Source: Alphaproteobacteria bacterium (GTDB taxonomy: Bacteria; Pseudomonadota; Alphaproteobacteria; CAAHEQ01; UBA3637). Taken from it: 60,283 nt of DNA. This document shows positions 8,199-60,109 of the stretch, one piece after another; position 1 is the first letter of the stretch, and each line of letters starts with the position of its first letter. The DNA lies in NCBI GenBank assembly GCA_045611665.1, contig JAZKXP010000006.1, positions 1 through 60,283 on the forward strand, in the 5' to 3' direction. A program made the translations under genes and the position numbers. A model generated the notes under the pieces. It saw only the letters and a list, made by a program, of their open reading frames with translations. It was not told the DNA's origin and did not search any database.

Positions 8199-8468
8199 TT
8201 ACTCATTCGGATTGTGACACACGATACGAGGGCTTAGTGCTCTACGGGCATTTAGTTGGTTATTAATTATCTCTCCGACTTTATTGTTATACACCCGCAT
8301 GCATCCGGTCCATTGACAATAACTGCTACATTTTCCAGATTGGCAGTAACTGGTTGGCGTACATTTTTGCCCATTTTGTGCTTCTACATCACAGACACCG
8401 ATAATTGCCAGCGTTCCCAACATTTCAACCATAGAACGACCAGATTGTAACGTGTGTTTCAAGTTCAT
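8199..8468 (-). CDS. mini-variant / deletion derivative of pilin-like Cys-rich family (sub-family B)
   Basis: The first 26 aa (MNLKHTLQSGRSMVEMLGTLAIIGV) and the 5' UTR are nearly identical to gene 16460. The hydrophobic helix is cut short and fused to one Cys-knot module and a C-terminal ...RIVCHNPNE tail. Its 3' flank/terminator resembles that of 45946..47385. Confidence 0.5.
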   Translation of the reverse strand: MNLKHTLQSGRSMVEMLGTLAIIGVCDVEAQNGQKCTPTSYCQSGKCSSYCQWTGCMRVYNNKVGEIINNQLNARRALSPRIVCHNPNE

Positions 8469-8490
8469 TTTTTACTCCTTTTTTTCGAAT

Positions 8491-8530
8491 TTTATCTGTC
8501 ATAAAAACGCCCCTTTTTATGACAGATAAA
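8491..8530. repeat. perfect 17-bp inverted repeat in shared 5' UTR (copy 1)
   Basis: TTTATCTGTCATAAAAA-CGCCCC-TTTTTATGACAGATAAA, about 25 nt upstream of the RBS of the minus-strand gene. Confidence 0.9.
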
Positions 8531-8668
8531 TTTTTTAATTGGACAAAGGTGAAAATTCAGCAATATTTCGACTCTATAAAAAAAAGGAACTCACCAGCCT
8601 AAGCCGGTAGTTTTCAAGATACAAAAATCCCCCTTAAATGAAGGGGGAATAACATATCTGACTGCAGT

Positions 8669-16260: not shown

Positions 16261-16398
16261 GACAAACAGTATGGCATATTTACTCCCAAAAAGCAAGCCT
16301 GAAAAGCCGGTAATTGTACTTGCGGTTTATCCCACCTTTTGAATTAAAATCTCCTTAAAATTCCATTGGCATTTTTTTAGGGGAGATTTATTTTAAAA

Positions 16399-16438
16399 TT
16401 TATCTGTCATAAAAAGGGGCGTTTTTATGACAGATAAA
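16399..16438. repeat. perfect 17-bp inverted repeat in shared 5' UTR (copy 2)
   Basis: TTTATCTGTCATAAAAA-GGGGCG-TTTTTATGACAGATAAA, followed by ATTCGAAAAAAGGAGTAAAAA-ATG. Confidence 0.9.
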
Positions 16439-16459
16439 ATTCGAAAAAAGGAGTAAAAA

Positions 16460-31282: not shown

Positions 31283-31352
31283 TTTTGTGTTTTTTTTATT
31301 GATTCTGATAAAAATACTTGCTCTTGCTTCGGGTATCTGTTATAACAAATGA

Positions 31353-31535
31353 CAGGGCGAGTGATGTGCGCCCCGAGGTATAAGAGCCTCTTTTCAGAAG
31401 CATCTTTTAGGATGAAACGTCTTTCCGGCTTGGCTGGAAGGCGGCCCAATAAGCCTTTTGCGGTCAATAAGCCGCACTATATCTTCTGAAATAGCTCTTA
31501 ACTTCCAGTCGCCACTCATCACGGCGATTTTTTAA
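31353..31535 (+). ncRNA. structured cis-regulatory leader RNA, copy A
   Basis: Promoter TTGCTC (31318-31323)/17 nt/TATAAC (31341-31346). GCCCCGAGG-loop-CCTCTT hairpin (31370-31392). Central hairpin CTTTCCGGC-TTG-GCTGGAAGG (31421-31441). GCTCTTA (31494-31500) is complementary to loop TAAGAGC (31381-31387). 3' box ACTTCCAG (31501-31508). Terminator TCGCC..GGCGA plus T6 (31509-31533). The GGAGG RBS and TTG start of 31548 follow. Confidence 0.75.
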
Positions 31536-31547
31536 TGGAGGTTTATT

Positions 31548-32906
31548 TTGAAACGTGATTTTGACTCCGGTCGGTCTATGGTGGAAATCATTGGCGTGAT
31601 GGCGGTGATGGGCGTTTTAATTATCGGCGGAATAGCCGGATACAAATACGCCATAGACAAAGCCAAAGCGAATCACATTATGAAAGATGTAGAACTGGCA
31701 TATGTGGCTGTATCTGCCTCCCCTGACCGAGAAAATATCGGCCTTACCGAATATACCGATGCCGTCAGCGGTTTTCCGACTTTTACAGAATGCATTATAG
31801 ATAAAGACTTTCAAGCAGATATTATCTTAGTCAAACACGTTCCTGAATCGGTCTGTGACAAAGTGTTGGAAATGGCCGAACCGACGCAGTGGATTGTTTC
31901 TTCGGTGGAAACGGATACGAATTATCTGTACCCGTTGACGGAATGTTCGGATACAAATGCATTAGTATTTTCTTTAGCCGATATACGCGATTTTGCATAC
32001 ACTTGCGATAAAGAATGTCCCGCAAATATGATGTGTGGCGTGAATGATGATTGTATTTGTGCCTATGGGTACAAGGCTGATGAAACAGGGACTTGTCAAG
32101 AAATTCAATGTGATGAAACGACAGAAGTCACTTGCACTTTTGACAGAGGGGAAAAATGGTGTTGCCCATACAATACATTCTGCAGCGAAACCCAAATCGG
32201 ACAATGTATTCCCTCAGATGGGTCATGTATTTATTACTTTTATGGTAATGGTAATACAGATTCTAAATATACAACAAATTGTAGTTACTTTGTTGCCGCC
32301 CAAGATACTGTCGAAAAAAATGGAACGAATTGCAGTTATATTATCAGTAGTTCTGGTACAGTAACATCCAACCAAGAATGTCCAGAAAAAAATCATTATT
32401 GCGCACTGATTTGGACAAAAGCAAGTTGGGAGGGAAATGAACAAGAGCCTATTGCATCTGGTAATTTTACTGGAACAATCTATGGTAAATGTCAATCAAT
32501 GGCGGCTTTTGAACGAACACCCGTCGTCTCATACAAAGAAGGAAAGTCAATGATTTACCCAAATATTGAATGTCCAGAAAAAAATCATTATTGTGCACTG
32601 ATTTGGACAAAAGAAAATTGGGAAGGAAATGAACAAGAGCCTATTGCATCTGGTAATTTTACTGGAACAATCTATGGTAAATGTCAATCAATGGCGGCTT
32701 TTGAACAAACACCTATTATGAAACACAATGATGCCAATCCTTTAAATTATCGTGTTGAAAAAGAATGTCCTCAAAAGCAATATTGCCATTTACAATGGTC
32801 AAATGAAATCTGCGAAATAGCTCCTGCAGATATAACTGGCCCAATATATGGAGCATGCGCGAGCATGAACACCTCAAATAAAGCTTGTCCCATAAAATCA
32901 GAATAA
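31548..32906 (+). CDS. Cys-rich protein with type IV pilin-like class III signal (sub-family A)
   Basis: TTG start 7 nt after GGAGG. MKRDFDSG|RSMVEIIGVMAVMGVLIIGGIAGYKYA. Head domain and three C-terminal ~64-aa repeats homologous to 1642..3069. Confidence 0.8.
   Translation: MKRDFDSGRSMVEIIGVMAVMGVLIIGGIAGYKYAIDKAKANHIMKDVELAYVAVSASPDRENIGLTEYTDAVSGFPTFTECIIDKDFQADIILVKHVPESVCDKVLEMAEPTQWIVSSVETDTNYLYPLTECSDTNALVFSLADIRDFAYTCDKECPANMMCGVNDDCICAYGYKADETGTCQEIQCDETTEVTCTFDRGEKWCCPYNTFCSETQIGQCIPSDGSCIYYFYGNGNTDSKYTTNCSYFVAAQDTVEKNGTNCSYIISSSGTVTSNQECPEKNHYCALIWTKASWEGNEQEPIASGNFTGTIYGKCQSMAAFERTPVVSYKEGKSMIYPNIECPEKNHYCALIWTKENWEGNEQEPIASGNFTGTIYGKCQSMAAFEQTPIMKHNDANPLNYRVEKECPQKQYCHLQWSNEICEIAPADITGPIYGACASMNTSNKACPIKSE
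32376..32900 (+). repeat. three tandem ~192-195-bp coding repeats; units 1 and 2 nearly identical
   Basis: Units start at about 32376, 32568 and 32763. Units 1 and 2 share a ~145-nt stretch with only a handful of mismatches (ECPEKNHYCALIWTK..WEGNEQEPIASGNFTGTIYGKCQSMAAFE). Confidence 0.85.
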
Positions 32907-41504: not shown

Positions 41505-41687
41505 TAAACAAAAACCACTTAAAAAGTGGTTGGAAGTTGAACACTACTTTAGCCAAATAGTACATCGTATTCGCCGGAACAACGACTTATTCAGATGTCT
41601 TCCAACCGTTGTTGGAAGTATTGATATCCTGTTTTTTCAAGATAGGCTAAAAAGAGGTGTTCAAACCTCGGGGCAAAAAATTACCTT
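41505..41687 (-). ncRNA. structured cis-regulatory leader RNA, copy D (upstream of glycosyltransferase operon)
   Basis: On the minus strand: GCCCCGAGG-TTTGAACA-CCTCTT. Loop TTGAACAC (plus-strand 41657-41664) is complementary to GTGTTCAA (41537-41544). Central hairpin CTTCCAAC-AACG-GTTGGAAG (41599-41618). 3' box ACTTCCAACC (41528-41537). Terminator AACCACTT-TTT-AAGTGGTT plus T run (41505-41531). Weak promoter TTGCAT/17 nt/TACCCT (41694-41722). Confidence 0.7.
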
Positions 41688-41793
41688 ATTCTCAGGGTAT
41701 CAAAAATTTTTTTAAGATGCAACATAAAAATAAAAAGATTGCATTTTATATGTTTTTTTGGCACACTGTTTTTTATCAGAAAAGGGCAATGAA

Positions 41794-42824: not shown

Positions 42825-42895
42825 ATTTTACGAATACGTCATTTTAAACCATTTTTCGGGTTGATTTTTGTATGTGGATTTGCTAATCTGATTTT

Positions 42896-43077
42896 AAGGT
42901 AAGTATTTTGCCCCGAGGTGTCAGAACCTCTTAAAGCGCGTCCGACAGCGGACGAAAAATATACGCTTTCCAGCATTGGCTGGAGGGCGGCAAAATAGGC
43001 AGTAATGCTGAATATGCCCACTATTCGCTTTAATAGTTCTGAACTTCCAGCCACTTTTTTTATAAAGGTGGTTTTTT
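42896..43077 (+). ncRNA. structured cis-regulatory leader RNA, copy B
   Basis: Promoter TTGATT (42861-42866)/17 nt/TAATCT (42884-42889). GCCCCGAGG-TGTCAGAA-CCTCTT (42910-42932). Loop TCAGAAC (42921-42927) is complementary to GTTCTGA (43036-43042). Central hairpin CTTTCCAGC-ATTG-GCTGGAGGG (42966-42987). 3' box ACTTCCAGCC (43043-43052). Terminator CCAC..GGTGG plus T6 (43051-43077). Confidence 0.75.
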
Positions 43078-43108: not shown

Positions 43109-43555
43109 ATGAAAAACTTATTTTTAATCTGTGCTGTTTTATTCACTACACCTGTTGCATTGGCCGATGATATCACTACCGAAACTTGTGCGAATGGCGC
43201 CGGAACAGTTATTGTGGGAAAAAGCGGTACTCAATATTGCATGAGCAACAATACAATGAATTTTTGGAATGCTTATTCTTGGTGTGATTCTTTGGGGATG
43301 CGTTTTATTGATTTAAATACTGAATGTGGATGTTCATCATTAGTTGATTGTAATGGACCTGTAAATACAGCAGGAAAATGTCCTGAATTGGCAACGGGGG
43401 TGGATACAAATATTTATATTTGGACAACATATTCTCAGGGACAAAATCCCTTGCTGATGAGCATTAATAATGGTGAAATTACATCGTATTGGACATATCG
43501 TTCACACACATCAAATGGTGTTAAAGGATGGCCATATCATGCTTTATGTCGCTAA
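43109..43555 (+). CDS. small secreted Cys-rich C-type-lectin-like protein
   Basis: ORF track 43076..43555. ATG 43109 follows RBS AAAGGGA and gives signal peptide MKNLFLICAVLFTTPVALA. QYCMSNNTMNFWNAYSWCDSLGMRF...YHALCR. Paralog of 32934..33338. Confidence 0.7.
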   Translation: MKNLFLICAVLFTTPVALADDITTETCANGAGTVIVGKSGTQYCMSNNTMNFWNAYSWCDSLGMRFIDLNTECGCSSLVDCNGPVNTAGKCPELATGVDTNIYIWTTYSQGQNPLLMSINNGEITSYWTYRSHTSNGVKGWPYHALCR

Positions 43556-45945: not shown

Positions 45946-47385
45946 TTACTTATCGGTGCAAAGTATAAAACCAGCAGAATATTGATTAGCATCATAAGGT
46001 GATATATGCTCTGTTCCGCCACAAATAAAACGTTGTGAAGTATTCTCAGAATAAACATCTTCCAGCCACTTTCTGTTAATGTTGGTTTTAAATGATTTTG
46101 CTCGATTGTTGGGAACAACGGTTGAGAGGTGTTCTGAATCAAATGACCACGATAAATAAAAATCATCGGCTTTGGCCATTCGCCATCCACTAGAACTACA
46201 GACATCTTTGGCCGTGTACCAATTTGTAAAATCGCTACTAGTTGAGGGGAAATACCAATTTTCCGTATGTTCTATGCCATTTTCATCCGTAAATGTAATT
46301 GTTTCGGTTGTATAGGATGGTACCTGTTCGCAAACACCACTCCCGTTTTGGGATAACCCATTACAGTATTGTCCACTGCCACACACCTTATGCGAGGTAC
46401 ATGAAATGGCGCAAGTCCCATCTAGCCAACATATACCGATTTGGTTATCTTGCGTTATACACATATTCCCTATCAAATAGGTACAAGAATTATCTTGACA
46501 CCCGACACAAACTGTATCTACTCCTTGTTCTGTGGCATACATAGTACAATCAATACCCCCACATAGCGTGTTTTCAGTTTGGCATATACCATTAGAACAC
46601 ACACCTTGCTTACCGTTTTTCTCACAAGTTAATCCACCGATAAGAGTTGGTGTACCATCTGCTACAACAAAGCAAGCTGGATCATAAGGGCAATTTTCCA
46701 CACTGCCGGTTTCACTGATACAAGTTTGTGTTCCGTCTGCCATACAAGTACCCAATACGCAATATCCCGTTTGTCCATCTTCAGTTGTACATTTAGATAT
46801 TGGTCCATTATTACTACAGCCTTTATTTTCTTCTTCATCAAAATAAAAGACCAACGTATTTTCATCACCGCAATCGCCGGCGTTTTCTCCCGCATATTCG
46901 GCATTAATTTTAACAGCTTTTGCATGTTTTTCCATACCCTCTACCATCAACTCACATACACGGCTCGGCACACCGGATACCTGAATTCCTATGGTTTCAT
47001 CTTCTAACGTAATCGGGTAAAGAGTCTTTTCATTTTTCCACCCATCTAAGGTGGCATCTCCGGTTGTATCAAACTGAGCCAACACATCTACAGCTCGTAC
47101 ATTCACATCATATATAGTCCGATTTGCCCGATATTTGTCCATACCGTAGCTGTAGCCGGCAATTCCGCCGACACTCAATACGCCGATGATGGCCAAAGTA
47201 CCGAGCATTTCTACCATAGAACGTCCACTTTGTGCTATGATGGCCCCTCGGGTCTTCGTTTCACTCCGACCGAGGGAGACAGAAAGGGGGAAACGACCGG
47301 CTTCTACTTTTCTATCATACTGGTGCCCCTCACCAGTATCCAGCAGTAATGAGGCATTATTATGGTTAAAATCTTGCGTAGCCAT
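45946..47385 (-). CDS. Cys-rich protein with internal pilin-like class III signal and C-type-lectin-like C-terminus (sub-family B)
   Basis: RBS AAGGAAG before ATG 47385. The motif ...AQSG|RSMVEMLGTLAIIGVLSVGGIAGYSYGMDKYRAN begins only at about residue 53. Many CxxGxxC modules. C-terminus FTNWYTAKDVCSSSGWRM...GFILCTDK. Confidence 0.75.
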   Translation of the reverse strand: MATQDFNHNNASLLLDTGEGHQYDRKVEAGRFPLSVSLGRSETKTRGAIIAQSGRSMVEMLGTLAIIGVLSVGGIAGYSYGMDKYRANRTIYDVNVRAVDVLAQFDTTGDATLDGWKNEKTLYPITLEDETIGIQVSGVPSRVCELMVEGMEKHAKAVKINAEYAGENAGDCGDENTLVFYFDEEENKGCSNNGPISKCTTEDGQTGYCVLGTCMADGTQTCISETGSVENCPYDPACFVVADGTPTLIGGLTCEKNGKQGVCSNGICQTENTLCGGIDCTMYATEQGVDTVCVGCQDNSCTYLIGNMCITQDNQIGICWLDGTCAISCTSHKVCGSGQYCNGLSQNGSGVCEQVPSYTTETITFTDENGIEHTENWYFPSTSSDFTNWYTAKDVCSSSGWRMAKADDFYLSWSFDSEHLSTVVPNNRAKSFKTNINRKWLEDVYSENTSQRFICGGTEHISPYDANQYSAGFILCTDK

Positions 47386-47414
47386 TTAGACTTCCTTTCA
47401 ATTTACAAATTAAA

Positions 47415-47597
47415 CGAAAACCACCTTTATAAAAAAAGTGGCTGGAAGTTAAGAGCTATTAAAACCAAACAGTATGATATATTGACCCCATAGGGCTATT
47501 TTATCATCCTCCAGCCAATGCTGGAAGTATTTTATGTCCTTGACTATAGGACAGGTTTTAAGAGGCTCTTATACCTCAGGGCAGAACACCTGCCTTA
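47415..47597 (-). ncRNA. structured cis-regulatory leader RNA, copy C
   Basis: Promoter TTGCAA (47627-47632)/17 nt/TAGTGT (47604-47609) on the minus strand. GCCCTGAGG-TATAAGAG-CCTCTT. Loop TAAGAGC (plus 47565-47571) is complementary to GCTCTTA (plus 47450-47456). Central hairpin CTTCCAGC-ATTG-GCTGGAGG (47508-47528). 3' box ACTTCCAGCC (47440-47449). Terminator (47417-47440). Confidence 0.75.
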
Positions 47598-47642
47598 AAA
47601 ATTACACTATCGAATTTTTTTATCTTTTGCAATACTAAAATA

Positions 47643-47696
47643 ATAAAAACGCCCCCGATTCCTCAAGGGCGTTTCAAAAATCAGATTACTCAAATC
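47643..47696 (-). terminator. eno intrinsic terminator (also duplicated downstream of thrS)
   Basis: On the minus strand: AAACGCCC-TTGAGGAATCGG-GGGCGTTT plus T run, immediately after the eno stop. Confidence 0.75.
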
Positions 47697-49007
<1,311 letters not shown>

Positions 49008-57452: not shown

Positions 57453-57630
57453 AAAATCCTACCCCGTGGTATGGGGAGGTTCAAAAATTCCTTTTTAGTG
57501 GCGTGTTCGCCCAACGGTTTTGGACTTTGAAAAAATCCAGCATGTCGTATGTGCGGGTTTTGATGGGAAAAAAGCTGATTTGCCTGAAACGGGATTTTTG
57601 GGCAAACAATTTAACAAAAGGAATAAAATA

Positions 57631-59556
57631 ATGATAGAATTAGTATTGCCAGATGGCGCAAAAATGTCAGTAGAAAGTGGCATTAAAGGGGTAGAAGTTG
57701 CCTCAAAAATTTCTGAAGGATTGGCGAAATGTGCGGTTGCTGTTAAAGTAAATGATACTTTGATGGATGTGACAACTCCGATTACAACAGGCGGTACTTT
57801 TTCAATTATCACAAGTAAAAATCCGGAAGGTTTAGAAATTTTGCGTCATACGGCGGCTCACGTGTTGGCTCAGGCTGTGGAAGCTTTATATCCAAATGCT
57901 AAAGCCACAATTGGTCCGGTTATTGAAAATGGTTTTTATTATGACTTTGCCGGTATTATTATCAAAGAAGATGAACTGCCGAAAATTGAAGCTAAAATGG
58001 CCGAAATTGTGGCGGCCGATTATCCGATTTCTCGCCAAATGATGGCTAGAGATGAGGCTGAACGTTTCTTTGCTGAACGTGGCGAACCATATAAAGTTGA
58101 AATTATTCGTGATATGCCCGAGGATGTAACGGAAGTGTCCATCTATACGCAAGGCGATTATGTGGAATTGTGCCGTGGTCCGCATTTGCCAAGAACGGGT
58201 ATGCTCGGCAAAGCTTTTAAATTAACTAAGGTATCCGCTGCCTATTGGCGTGGAGATGCAACAAAAGAATCTTTGCAACGTGTCTATGGAACGGCTTTCT
58301 TTAATGAAAAAGAACTGAAAAACTACTTTACTATGTTGGAAGAGGCCGAACGCCGTGATCACCGTAAACTCGGTAAAGAAATGGATTTGTACCATTTTGA
58401 AGAATTTGCACCGGGCGATGTATTTTGGCATCCACGTGGTTGGACATTGTTCCAAACATTGATTGATTATATGCGTAAACGTCAAAAAGCCGTCGGTTAT
58501 GTTGAAATTAACACGCCGCAACTGATGAACCGCGTGTTATGGGAAACGTCAGGCCACTGGGATTGGTATCAAGAAAATATGTTTACAACAACGGTGGAAG
58601 AAAAGGCTTTTGCCTTAAAACCGATGAACTGCCCAGGGGGGGTATTGGTCTTTAAACATGGTCTGACCAGCTATCGTGATTTACCGCAATATATTGGTGA
58701 ATTTGGTCGTGTTCATCGTTATGAAGCCTCAGGTGCTATTCACGGATTAATGCGTGTGCGTGCCTTTACGCAAGATGATGCCCATATTTTCTGTACGCCT
58801 GAGCAATTGCATGACGAATTGCAAAATGTGGTTAAATTGATGGTCAGTATTTATGAAGATTTTGGCATGACGGATATGAAAATCAAATTGTCTACCCGTC
58901 CGGCCGAACGCATTGGATCTGATGAAATTTGGGACTTCCTTGAAAACGGATTAGCCGAAGCCATTACGGATATGGGCTATACCTATGAAATTAACGAAGG
59001 CGACGGGGCTTTCTATGGTCCGAAATTGGACTTTAAATTCCGTGATGCAATTGGCCGTGAATGGCAACTTGGGACTTTGCAAGCCGATTTGAACTTGCCG
59101 GAACGCTTTGATGTAAACTATGTCGGTGAAGATGGTCAAAAACATCGCCCGATTATGTTGCACCGTGCTTTGTTCGGGTCTTTGGAACGGTTCTTAGGCG
59201 TGTATATTGAAAGCACAGCCGGTCGTTTCCCGTTCTGGTTAGCGCCGGTTCAAATTATGGTGGCACCCGTTACGAATGACCAAGACGACTATGCCAAAAA
59301 AGTCCTCAAACGTCTGCAACGGGCCGGTATTCGTGCCGAAGCCGATTTGCGTAATGAAAAAATCAGCTATAAGGTACGTGAACACAGTTTGAAAAAAATC
59401 CCAGTGATTGCTGTCGTTGGTAAAAACGAAGCGGCTGAAGAAACACTCACTTTGCGTCGCTTGGGTGAAGAAAAACAAGTCGTCATGAAATTGGAAGATG
59501 CCGTTAAACAATTTAAATTGGATGCACGGTACCCATCCGTTGAGTATGATGATTAA
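57631..59556 (+). CDS. thrS: threonine--tRNA ligase
   Basis: ORF track starts at 57520. ATG 57631 (RBS AAAGGA) gives the TGS-domain N-terminus MIELVLPDG. HTAAHVLA, class II motifs, anticodon-binding C-terminus. Confidence 0.9.
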   Translation: MIELVLPDGAKMSVESGIKGVEVASKISEGLAKCAVAVKVNDTLMDVTTPITTGGTFSIITSKNPEGLEILRHTAAHVLAQAVEALYPNAKATIGPVIENGFYYDFAGIIIKEDELPKIEAKMAEIVAADYPISRQMMARDEAERFFAERGEPYKVEIIRDMPEDVTEVSIYTQGDYVELCRGPHLPRTGMLGKAFKLTKVSAAYWRGDATKESLQRVYGTAFFNEKELKNYFTMLEEAERRDHRKLGKEMDLYHFEEFAPGDVFWHPRGWTLFQTLIDYMRKRQKAVGYVEINTPQLMNRVLWETSGHWDWYQENMFTTTVEEKAFALKPMNCPGGVLVFKHGLTSYRDLPQYIGEFGRVHRYEASGAIHGLMRVRAFTQDDAHIFCTPEQLHDELQNVVKLMVSIYEDFGMTDMKIKLSTRPAERIGSDEIWDFLENGLAEAITDMGYTYEINEGDGAFYGPKLDFKFRDAIGREWQLGTLQADLNLPERFDVNYVGEDGQKHRPIMLHRALFGSLERFLGVYIESTAGRFPFWLAPVQIMVAPVTNDQDDYAKKVLKRLQRAGIRAEADLRNEKISYKVREHSLKKIPVIAVVGKNEAAEETLTLRRLGEEKQVVMKLEDAVKQFKLDARYPSVEYDD

Positions 59557-59593: not shown

Positions 59594-59662
59594 CGCTTTA
59601 AAAAATAAGATTTGAGTAATCTGATTTTTGAAACGCCCTTGGGGAATCGGGGGTGTTTTTTT
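59594..59662 (+). repeat. duplicate of the eno 3' end (last codons and stop) plus the eno terminator
   Basis: CGCTTTAAAAAATAAGATTTGAGTAATCTGATTTTTGAAACGCCCTTGGGGAATCGGGGGTGTTTTT matches the minus strand of 47643-47711 with 2 mismatches. It also serves as the thrS terminator. Confidence 0.85.
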
Positions 59663-59677
59663 ATATATTGGAAAAAA

Positions 59678-59717
59678 TTTATCTGTCATAAAAAGGGTCG
59701 TTTTTGTGACAGATAAA
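59678..59717. repeat. 17-bp inverted repeat in shared 5' UTR (copy 3, one mismatch)
   Basis: TTTATCTGTCATAAAAA-GGGTCG-TTTTTGTGACAGATAAA, followed by the same ATTCGAAAAAAAAGGAGTAAAAA-ATG. Confidence 0.9.
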
Positions 59718-59740
59718 ATTCGAAAAAAAAGGAGTAAAAA

Positions 59741-59890
59741 ATGAACTTGAAACACACGTTACAATCCGGTCGGTCTATGGTGGAAATGCTATGGGTTTTG
59801 GCGATTATCGGTGTTCTGTCTGTTGGGGCGATAGCGGGATATTCCTACGGTATGGCCAAATACCGTGCGAATGAAACGATTAATGATATT
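59741..59890 (+). pseudogene. 5' fragment of a sub-family B pilin-like gene
   Basis: MNLKHTLQSGRSMVEMLWVLAIIGVLSVGAIAGYSYGMAKYRANETINDI is homologous to 16460 and 45946. After about codon 50 the similarity ends, and the track ORF (to 60094) reads through low-complexity sequence and the next gene's promoter. Confidence 0.7.
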
Positions 59891-60109
59891 ATGCTCAACC
59901 GACTTATGCTTATGGAGTTAATAGGGCCCAACATCGTGGCGGCGGGCGGTGAGTTTTTGCCACAAAATCAATTTCTGCACCTAATTATCGTTAATAACAT
60001 TAAAGTTATCAGAATGATTTTTATCTGTCTTTGTCTTTTTTTAAAAACACTTGACAGAAAATATGTTTTCTGCTATTTTCTTTCGAAAAAGTAACAGGAG
60101 TTATGGACT

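Follow-up and report, generated by a model that had tools for sequence, protein, structure and literature searches.

A family of leader RNAs with two mutually exclusive folds upstream of surface- and secreted-protein genes in uncultured gut Alphaproteobacteria

Introduction

The window analysed here, by which we mean the whole stretch of 60,283 nt (39.7% G+C) of an alphaproteobacterial contig, contains between eno and a gene for a 479-aa protein a short minus-strand region (47,386 to 47,642) in which ~190 nt past a promoter are crowded with complementary segments. The initial annotation had taken this region for one copy, designated C, of a structured leader RNA that precedes a pilin-like gene. 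The question raised by the locus is what kind of RNA this is, and how it would act on the gene that it precedes.

Results

Leader copies in the window

Four copies of the leader, A to D, are present in the window, each with its own promoter and with an intrinsic terminator just before the ribosome-binding site of the gene. They are arranged as follows:

31318-31533, plus strand: promoter, leader (31353-31510) and terminator (31509-31533) of copy A, followed by a prepilin-like ORF (31548-32906)
42861-43077, plus strand: promoter, leader (42895-43052) and terminator (43051-43077) of copy B, followed by a small secreted Cys-rich ORF (43109-43555)
41510-41722, minus strand: promoter, leader (41528-41688) and terminator (41510-41529) of copy D
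41388 to 36211, minus strand: run of co-oriented ORFs downstream of copy D (first start 41388, last end 36211), the first gene being a family-2 glycosyltransferase
47417-47597, minus strand: leader and terminator of copy C, between eno and the 479-aa ORF

Copy C belongs to an uncatalogued RNA family whose members are 5' leaders ~185-190 nt long. A covariance model trained on copies A to C recovered the divergent copy D at 93.9 bits (E ~1e-21), and the rest of the window gave nothing better than E = 0.6. Two boxed motifs have three occurrences apiece in the window, where shuffled sequence would give 0.00 and 0.05, and the fold of copy C has a z of -5.07 relative to dinucleotide shuffles. Rfam 15 returned zero matches at gathering score across the whole window, and at E up to 10 only chance-level matches were obtained for each of the four copies. 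The PyrR and HTH-XRE matches, which recur in copies B and C at 14-16 bits, were rejected as chance level; the PyrR site (RF00515), for which the cut-off is 54, reached 16.4 and 15.9 bits (E 9.2 and 6.7) in two copies out of the four, and none of the genes downstream is a pyr gene. Full-text literature searches, in which the consensus boxes themselves also served as strings, turned up no account of such a leader RNA. The leader RNA family is real and conserved, and is described neither in Rfam nor in the literature searched.

Two alternative folds of the leader, termed state I and state II below, are needed for the feature map of copy C:

47697-48983, minus strand: eno ORF
47646-47675, minus strand: eno terminator, a hairpin with a T run, which is upstream context outside the leader
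47627-47632, minus strand: -35-like hexamer TTGCAA, read from the sequence and fitting the family-wide -35 register
47604-47609, minus strand: -10-like hexamer TAGTGT, 17 nt past the -35 hexamer
near 47597, minus strand: putative transcription start
47440-47597, minus strand: sensor/switch domain, matched by covariance model R1 at 180.5 bits
47580-47594, minus strand: P1, the 5'-terminal hairpin GGCAG/CUGCC
47562-47577, minus strand: GAGGU-A-UAAGAGC-CUC, the P2 5' strand in state I and a local GAGG:CCUC hairpin in state II
47554-47561, minus strand: P2a 5' strand, UUAAAACC, whose state I partner is 47459-47466
47535-47553, minus strand: P3, a variable hairpin
47508-47527, minus strand: P4 hairpin, in which X1, CUUCCAGC (47520-47527), pairs with GCUGGAGG
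47508-47516, minus strand: switch strand Y, GGCUGGAGG
47474-47507, minus strand: P5/P5a arm with a conserved AAAUA/AAUA internal loop, found in both states
47456-47472, minus strand: P6 hairpin (CUGU...AUAG) of state II, whose loop is the P2a 3' strand (47459-47466)
47440-47456, minus strand: P2 3' strand GCUCUUA-ACUUC, overlapping X2
47440-47448, minus strand: X2, CUUCCAGCC, the partner of Y in state II
47417-47441, minus strand: intrinsic terminator CCACUUU...AAAGGUGG and its U run, beginning on the final two bases of X2
47417-47420, minus strand: U run of this terminator
47391-47397, minus strand: ribosome-binding site AAGGAAG
47383-47385, minus strand: start codon ATG of the gene
45946-47385, minus strand: putatively regulated gene for a 479-aa cysteine-rich protein, with a prepilin-like SGRSMVEMLGTLAIIGVLSVGG motif behind an unusually long N-terminal extension

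Copy C thus lies directly after the eno terminator, as the initial annotation had placed it. Two hairpins that had been pointed out in the 5' coding region of the gene, ATACTGGTG-AGGGG-CACCAGTAT (47317-47339) and CCCTCGG...CCGAGGG (47245-47276), both appear in the MFE fold. A repeat element was considered for this coding segment and rejected, the segment being unique in the window and in the loci. A leader peptide was also considered and rejected: the leader has no conserved start codon or ORF, and conservation does not extend to the AUG that copy C has in P5.

Relatives and copy number

The four copies supplied a gapped pattern, and a scan of GTDB with one genome for each species gave at least 109 stretches, to which the covariance model was then applied. 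This yielded at least 147 covariance-model copies (134 + 13, with the four window copies counted) in at least 25 genomes besides the window, and the boxes that had been called conserved from a single genome are kept in these other genomes. The conservation of GAGGT, CCTC, GGYTGGARG and ACTTCCA is partly built in, since the pattern required them; the 22 model-only matches, which are free of this bias, keep the boxes with compensated variants. Five loci from other phyla, L016, L031, L033 and L047 (Clostridia, Archangium) and L100 (Anaerolineales), matched the pattern by chance, had no covariance-model match and were discarded.

All but one of the leader-bearing genomes listed are labelled as uncultured Alphaproteobacteria from the rumen, the caecum or the human or mouse gut. 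One MAG, labelled Eubacteriales, departs from this, and the contig concerned is probably mis-binned, since it carries the same leader and gene pair. The window genome itself was absent from the leader-bearing genomes scanned; among the matches listed, those of RGIG3823, RGIG6380 and RGIG7351 come closest to the window copies. At least 101 copies are present in a single roe-deer rumen MAG, RGIG4937 (JAFUYI01), many of them at contig ends, and we know of no riboswitch or attenuator family for which so many copies in one genome have been reported. The pattern scan of viral contigs returned 0 copies, so that no link to phages was found.

State I: a long-range fold

In state I, P2 is formed by GAGGU, a one-base bulge and a 7-nt box, which pair with the complement of the box and ACUUC, and P2a, an 8-bp helix, extends this rod beyond a small CUC/UA internal loop. 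The rod P2/P2a closes a four-way junction with the variable hairpin P3, with P4 (X1 and its partner) and with P5. Conserved unpaired nucleotides are found in the AAAUA/AAUA loop of P5, in the A-rich J3/4 and in the ACU after P5.

In the 134-sequence alignment (A3), itself fitted to state I, the share of paired cells for that state is 98.1%, compared with 79.7% in column shuffles and 32-50% when the partners are slid by 1-3 columns; copies from the same MAG are paralogues, by which such cell counts overstate the independent events and the pair types per position do not. Changes on both sides occur at 21 of the 31 state I pairs. In P1, all three scored pairs covary and 99.7% of cells are paired, and the five inner box pairs of P2 show all four Watson-Crick types across the family. 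The alignment is too coarse to follow the variability of P2a, which is clear when each sequence is taken by itself: cognate P2a duplexes have a mean of -8.5 kcal/mol against -2.8 for non-cognate ones, and -6 is reached by 93% of the former and 5.5% of the latter. Invariant G-U pairs, for example G43-U288 in 128 copies, fix the strand of the RNA, as the other strand would give A-C mismatches.

These results bear on the box pair on which the initial annotation had rested much of its argument. UAAGAGC (47565-47571) and GCUCUUA (47450-47456) are present in copy C and identical in copy A, and to that extent the observation stands; the pair is not a conserved box, however, but the core of a covarying helix, which reads UCAGAAC/GUUCUGA in copy B and UGAACAC/GUGUUCA in copy D, and the identity of A and C is incidental. 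A pseudoknot between a loop and its partner, as had been suggested, is one possible reading of this pair, but the same segments also make up the central part of a nested long-range helix of 12 bp, onto which the 8-bp P2a follows. The GAGG:CCUC hairpin that would supply the loop belongs to the alternative fold and not to the nested P2 reading. GAGGU:ACUUC and GAGG:CCUC are both nearly invariant, and so neither has covariation support. The broader view, that this is a structured RNA and not a recent duplication, is borne out by helices that differ fully between copies and yet stay complementary, with 98-99% of cells paired and many double changes among the 134 homologues.

State II: a competing fold

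Strand Y (GGYUGGAAG), made up of the P4 3' arm and one or two bases of the loop, is also complementary to X2 (CUUCCARYC), with which it forms a helix of 9-10 bp. X2 in turn overlaps the ACUUC of P2 and extends into the terminator. In state II, 99.0% of cells are paired, compared with 84.0% in shuffles and 30-48% in the slid controls, and Y:X2 is 97-100% paired at all nine positions. Its variable position is U-A in 68 copies, C-G in 43 and G-U in 18, with a mismatch in 4 (129 of 133 paired); CCA-to-CCG variants of X2 are compensated by UGG-to-CGG in Y, and in one copy the change of CUUCC to CAUCC in X2 is compensated by GGAAG to GGAUG in Y. X1:Y is conserved as well, far richer in G-U pairs than Y:X2, and Y:X2 is the more stable of the two in 95% of copies (-13.0 vs -9.5 kcal/mol).

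The second element of state II is P6, in which CUNU after P5 pairs with ANAG before the box; 99.4% of cells are paired, and the variable pair is GC in 63 and AU in 60. Because the loop of P6 is the 3' strand of P2a, P6 and P2a cannot coexist. RNAalifold, applied to a model-free MAFFT alignment of 18 diverse copies, predicted state II unaided, including the GAGG:CCUC hairpin, Y:X2, P5, P6 and the terminator. The leader therefore has two mutually exclusive helix sets, both of them under selection. P4 can also form alongside both P6 and the GAGG:CCUC hairpin, two elements that may belong to an all-local folding intermediate rather than to state II proper.

Promoter, terminator and arrangement in cis

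The promoter of copy C, read earlier as TTGCAA and TAGTGT with 17 nt between them, agrees with the E. coli consensus at 7 of 12 positions, which is below the threshold of a generic promoter scan, and it fits the register common to 121 copies. In this register, counted from the first model position, the -35 element TTtAcA lies at -34..-29, TG at -14/-13 and TAnnnT at -11..-6, and an A/T-rich stretch upstream is common to the same 121 copies. The conserved register indicates that the RNA starts at P1.

At the other end of the leader, 114 of the 129 copies that have enough downstream sequence carry a hairpin and, behind it, a U run; in copy C this hairpin was called by terminator prediction at 47419-47443. 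Of the 114 stems, 113 begin 1-3 nt within X2, 81 of them at exactly 2 nt, so that pairing of Y with X2 removes the base pairs of the terminator stem that adjoin the U run. A co-oriented ORF with a ribosome-binding site follows 128 of the 134 copies, mostly with its start 35-80 nt past X2. The gap from terminator to start codon is mostly 15-35 nt, which leaves little room for a separate gene promoter in most copies.

Downstream genes

Six window ORFs have a prepilin-like N-terminus, G-R-S-M-V-E with Glu at +5, followed by ~20 hydrophobic residues; among the downstream genes of the family at large, such N-termini read G-R-S-M-(V/I)-E. The earlier description of the copy C gene as pilin-like has this motif (G-R-S-M-V-E and the hydrophobic stretch) as its sole basis; no pilin model reaches threshold. 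The window proteins have no match to PF07963 or TIGR02532, and a relative at locus L017 falls just under the cut-offs (15.3 vs 16.3 and 15.4 vs 21.2 bits). No Pfam, NCBIfam or PDB match was found for the window prepilin-like proteins and small secreted families.

In RGIG4937, the leader precedes ~100 secreted paralogues of 155-190 aa (MKNYILMLG...ATMTVTATIAHDVSL) that are without a database match. Among the other downstream genes are those for BspA-type LRR proteins, for an outer-membrane beta-barrel and for small secreted proteins rich in Cys, of which the gene behind copy B is an example; operons of family-2 glycosyltransferases, such as the one behind copy D, are found as well. The downstream genes all have envelope or secreted functions, and the leader probably controls which surface proteins are made. 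Pfam annotation of 30 further window ORFs gave ordinary housekeeping and envelope genes and no RNA-binding regulator.

Discussion

The leader shares the characteristics of generic attenuator- or riboswitch-type leaders, namely a promoter-proximal position, a terminator, an alternative helix that competes with it and a covarying sensor domain, and the family is best explained as a new class inside this known kind of regulator. Our preferred reading, to which we give a probability of roughly 0.7, is that the leader is a cis-acting two-state terminator/antiterminator switch for a surface- and secreted-protein regulon in uncultured gut Alphaproteobacteria.

Under this reading, transcription would begin ~7 nt past the -10 hexamer, at the P1 hairpin. 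In state I, GAGGU and the 7-nt box would pair with the box complement and ACUUC to form P2, P2a would extend the rod, and the junction of P3, P4 (X1:Y) and P5 would be closed; the last bases of X2 would then stay free, the terminator hairpin would form, and RNA polymerase would be expected to stop at the U run before the gene. In state II, GAGG would pair locally with CCUC, the P2a 3' strand would become the loop of P6, and Y would leave X1 for X2, taking 2-3 bases at the bottom of the terminator stem beside the U run and thereby allowing read-through into the gene. Expression would accordingly depend on a factor by which state II is favoured or P2/P2a blocked, and we infer both this relief of termination and the choice of state by an effector. 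In the nested energy model, state I lies below the fold with Y:X2 enforced by 14-15 kcal/mol for the full leader and by 9-11 when X2 has just been made. Termination was taken as the default because state I is the more stable in this model, and with a preference of 9-15 kcal/mol state II needs help or kinetic trapping to matter. The overlap of Y:X2 with the terminator, only 2-3 nt, is small for an antiterminator.

As for the effector, a small molecule or signalling nucleotide and an RNA-binding antiterminator protein are about equally likely, each a tentative choice, and the remaining share goes to other effectors or to none.

First, the leader could be a true riboswitch, in which a small molecule, most plausibly a signalling nucleotide, would bind the conserved nucleotides of the junction and internal loops and fix one fold. 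A large multi-helix domain with conserved unpaired nucleotides and the usual terminator expression platform are what such a riboswitch would have. The c-di-GMP riboswitches of classes I and II (the GEMM families of Rfam) sit upstream of pilin, adhesin and flagellar genes, and the regulon of pili, adhesin-like and envelope genes seen here resembles those targets. The likeness extends to a promoter-proximal structured leader, a terminator opposed by an alternative helix, several copies per genome and pili or surface genes downstream. The architecture, however, differs, and neither GEMM (in the matches of the four copies at E up to 10) nor any other Rfam riboswitch model matches; conservation peaks in the switching strands and not in the junctions, and at least 101 copies in one genome is more than is known to have been reported for riboswitch classes. 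For c-di-GMP itself, no GG[DE]EF signature was found in ~1,100 long open frames from 0.81 Mb of partial genomes, which counts only weakly against it.

Second, a dedicated RNA-binding antiterminator or terminator protein, of the BglG/SacY, PyrR or TRAP kind, could stabilise the Y:X2 fold or its opposite and so control the whole surface regulon, a possibility we hold just as provisionally. That state II is unaided the less stable fold by such a large amount is typical of protein-stabilised antiterminators, the invariant elements GAGGU, CCUC, GGYUGGAAGG and AACUUCCA would suit sequence-specific reading, and a very large regulon in one genome fits a global regulator. A protein is not, however, required to explain why GAGGU, CCUC, X1/X2 and Y are invariant, since every one of these strands can choose among two or three partners and changes would need several compensations; among the 30 window ORFs scanned there is no candidate regulator, and the PyrR-site matches are at chance. 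Compared with BglG/SacY RAT, PyrR and TRAP trp leaders, the family shares a predicted default of termination, a weaker antiterminator that overlaps the terminator by a few nt and short elements that a protein could read; it lacks their motifs, its domain is much larger (~160 nt with five to six helices), and its regulon consists of surface proteins rather than a metabolic pathway.

Two further known systems deserve comparison. The T-box also has a long multi-helix leader, a choice between terminator and antiterminator, many copies per genome and a segment that varies from copy to copy, but no T-box model matches the leader, the variable segment is paired in cis instead of being an exposed specifier, and the downstream genes are neither aminoacyl-tRNA synthetase nor amino-acid genes. 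The systems of NusG paralogues (RfaH/ops, UpxY of Bacteroides, LoaP) likewise involve many surface-structure loci, each behind a leader that has to be overcome; they use DNA or RNA recruitment sites for a NusG-like protein, in contrast to a bistable RNA with its own antiterminator helix, and no protein of the NusG-paralogue type was seen among the 30 window ORFs scanned.

Readings that give the leader no role in cis fit the data poorly. An independent family of trans-acting small RNA genes, whose position beside surface genes would be a by-product of co-duplication, would account for the promoter and the efficient-looking terminator of each copy, and the terminated RNA of ~185 nt would be stable and structured. 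We consider this unlikely, since the same orientation and ribosome-binding-site spacing are kept before unrelated families (prepilin-like, secreted paralogues, LRR, outer-membrane and family-2 glycosyltransferase genes), most of the genes follow the terminator so closely that they have no obvious promoter of their own, and copy-specific 18-mers, looked for in 0.75 Mb biased towards leader-bearing blocks, had no extra sense or antisense copies except in orthologous or duplicate assemblies. A repeated or mobile DNA element (REP- or MITE-like) without function at the RNA level, which the very high copy number in one MAG and the many copies at contig ends might suggest, is hardly credible given compensatory changes that preserve 98-99% of pairs although nearly every copy has helix sequences of its own, a strand fixed by G-U pairs, constant co-orientation with the next gene, a promoter and terminator in the element and the empty scan of viral contigs.

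Returning to the two-state switch in cis, one feature of RGIG4937 raises a more specific possibility. The P2 core and P2a strand are the most divergent part of the RNA in this MAG, with a mean pairwise identity of 0.40-0.42 against 0.50-0.61 for the other variable helices, and their combined sequence is unique in 89 of 91 copies, with the switching strands invariant. This divergence may reflect mere lack of constraint. It could also make the leader an addressable switch that chooses among many surface-protein paralogues, an idea we regard as improbable: if the rod of a single copy were blocked, whether through an antisense RNA specific to it, through an RNA transcribed at another locus or through stochastic misfolding, the shift to read-through would be confined to that copy. 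The 0.75 Mb searched for 18-mers, with its bias towards leader-bearing blocks, contained no trans copies of these rod sequences. If true, this would be one-of-many expression at the RNA level, that is, antigenic or phase variation without DNA rearrangement.

The family is an unusually clear case of an RNA in which covariation brings out the two alternative folds of a switch. The effector, once found, would be new, either as a riboswitch ligand class or as an antitermination factor. The hosts are gut and rumen Alphaproteobacteria known only from MAGs, and the leader offers a view of how their surface is controlled: one leader family before prepilin-like genes, ~100 secreted paralogues, LRR adhesin-like genes and glycosyltransferase operons points to a single signal or factor that governs the whole cell surface.

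Genes behind the leader in other genomes

Pairings between the two-state 5' leader RNA and its downstream genes were kept beyond the window. The combination with a small secreted Cys-rich protein (pattern ETCANGAG...YC...NWWNA..WCD..GM) was retained in at least five genomes, represented by window copy B (43109-43555) and the loci L076, L051, L020 and L030. The combination with GT2 glycosyltransferase genes was likewise retained in at least three genomes, represented by window copy D, L075 and L079. In addition, a leader copy scoring 89.4 bits (L017:2810-2974, minus strand) was found in a MAG labelled 'uncultured Eubacteriales', where it is followed by a prepilin-like gene of alphaproteobacterial type; this contig is probably mis-binned.

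Expansion and divergence of the leader in RGIG4937

At least 101 leader copies were identified in a single MAG, RGIG4937 (JAFUYI01), for example L038:4394-4552, L062 and L013. Most of them precede a family of secreted paralogues of 155-190 aa (MKNYILMLGVAGVALGSYCAYAGNSATMTVTATIAHDVSL...), which had no match in Pfam or NCBIfam. Many copies lie less than 200 nt from contig ends, and the assembly was therefore probably fragmented by this repeat family. Within this genome, the leader diverges most in the strand formed by the P2 core and P2a, defined as columns 48-52 of the 134-sequence leader alignment (A3) plus the 8-9 nt past column 56, and corresponding to 47554-47570 in copy C. The combined sequence was unique in 89 of 91 RGIG4937 copies, and helices P1 and P5 occurred in just 21-35 distinct versions. 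Searches with the P2 core and P2a 18-mers found no additional sense or antisense copies elsewhere in 0.75 Mb of sampled sequence.

An insertion in the prepilin-like gene behind copy C

Comparison with relatives in L041, L004 and L021 revealed that about 135 nt (window 47226-47365, minus strand) are inserted in frame into gene C, the prepilin-like ORF behind leader copy C. The insertion separates codon 7 from the SGRSMVE motif and belongs to the segment that would be removed by a prepilin peptidase. The two strong hairpins that the initial annotation had described in the 5' coding region are indeed present, and both fall inside this insertion, along with EAGRF and LGRSE, two sequences that resemble the G-R-S motif in degenerate form. 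No second copy of the insertion was detected in the window or in 0.75 Mb of related loci.

Prepilin-like genes and a second upstream element

In six ORFs within the 60 kb (window 1660, 8441, 16487, 31569, 47226 and 59768), a stretch of about 20 hydrophobic residues comes directly after the motif G-R-S-M-V-E, with Glu at +5 and Arg at +1, where Phe is usual. Standard pilin models recognized none of these window ORFs, and the leader is present at only two of the six (copies A and C).

Self-comparison of the window showed 96% identity across 56 nt between 59605-59660 (plus strand) and 47645-47700 (minus strand). The duplicated piece comprises the final eno codons and the eno terminator, and its second copy lies downstream of a large ORF (57520-59556) that, judged by its sequence alone, reads as thrS-like. 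Behind this second copy lies a truncated prepilin-like ORF of 117 aa (59741-60094), which is without a leader of the copy A-D family. This arrangement looks like a segmental duplication or a recombination scar of an eno-pilin junction.

Furthermore, near-identical starts of prepilin-like genes (MNLKHTLQSGRSMVEML...) were observed at three window sites, all behind an element other than the leader, which consists of the 12-bp palindrome TTTATCTGTCAT, 16 nt and ATGACAGATAAA, then AAATTCGAAAAAAAGGAGTAAAAAATG:

59675-59740, plus strand, palindrome-type upstream element, copy 1
16395-16459, plus strand, palindrome-type upstream element, copy 2
8469-8535, minus strand, palindrome-type upstream element, copy 3

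At 8199-8468, the prepilin-like ORF is just 89 aa long and has a truncated hydrophobic segment. The palindrome element constitutes, next to the leader, a second kind of control region in this prepilin-like gene family.
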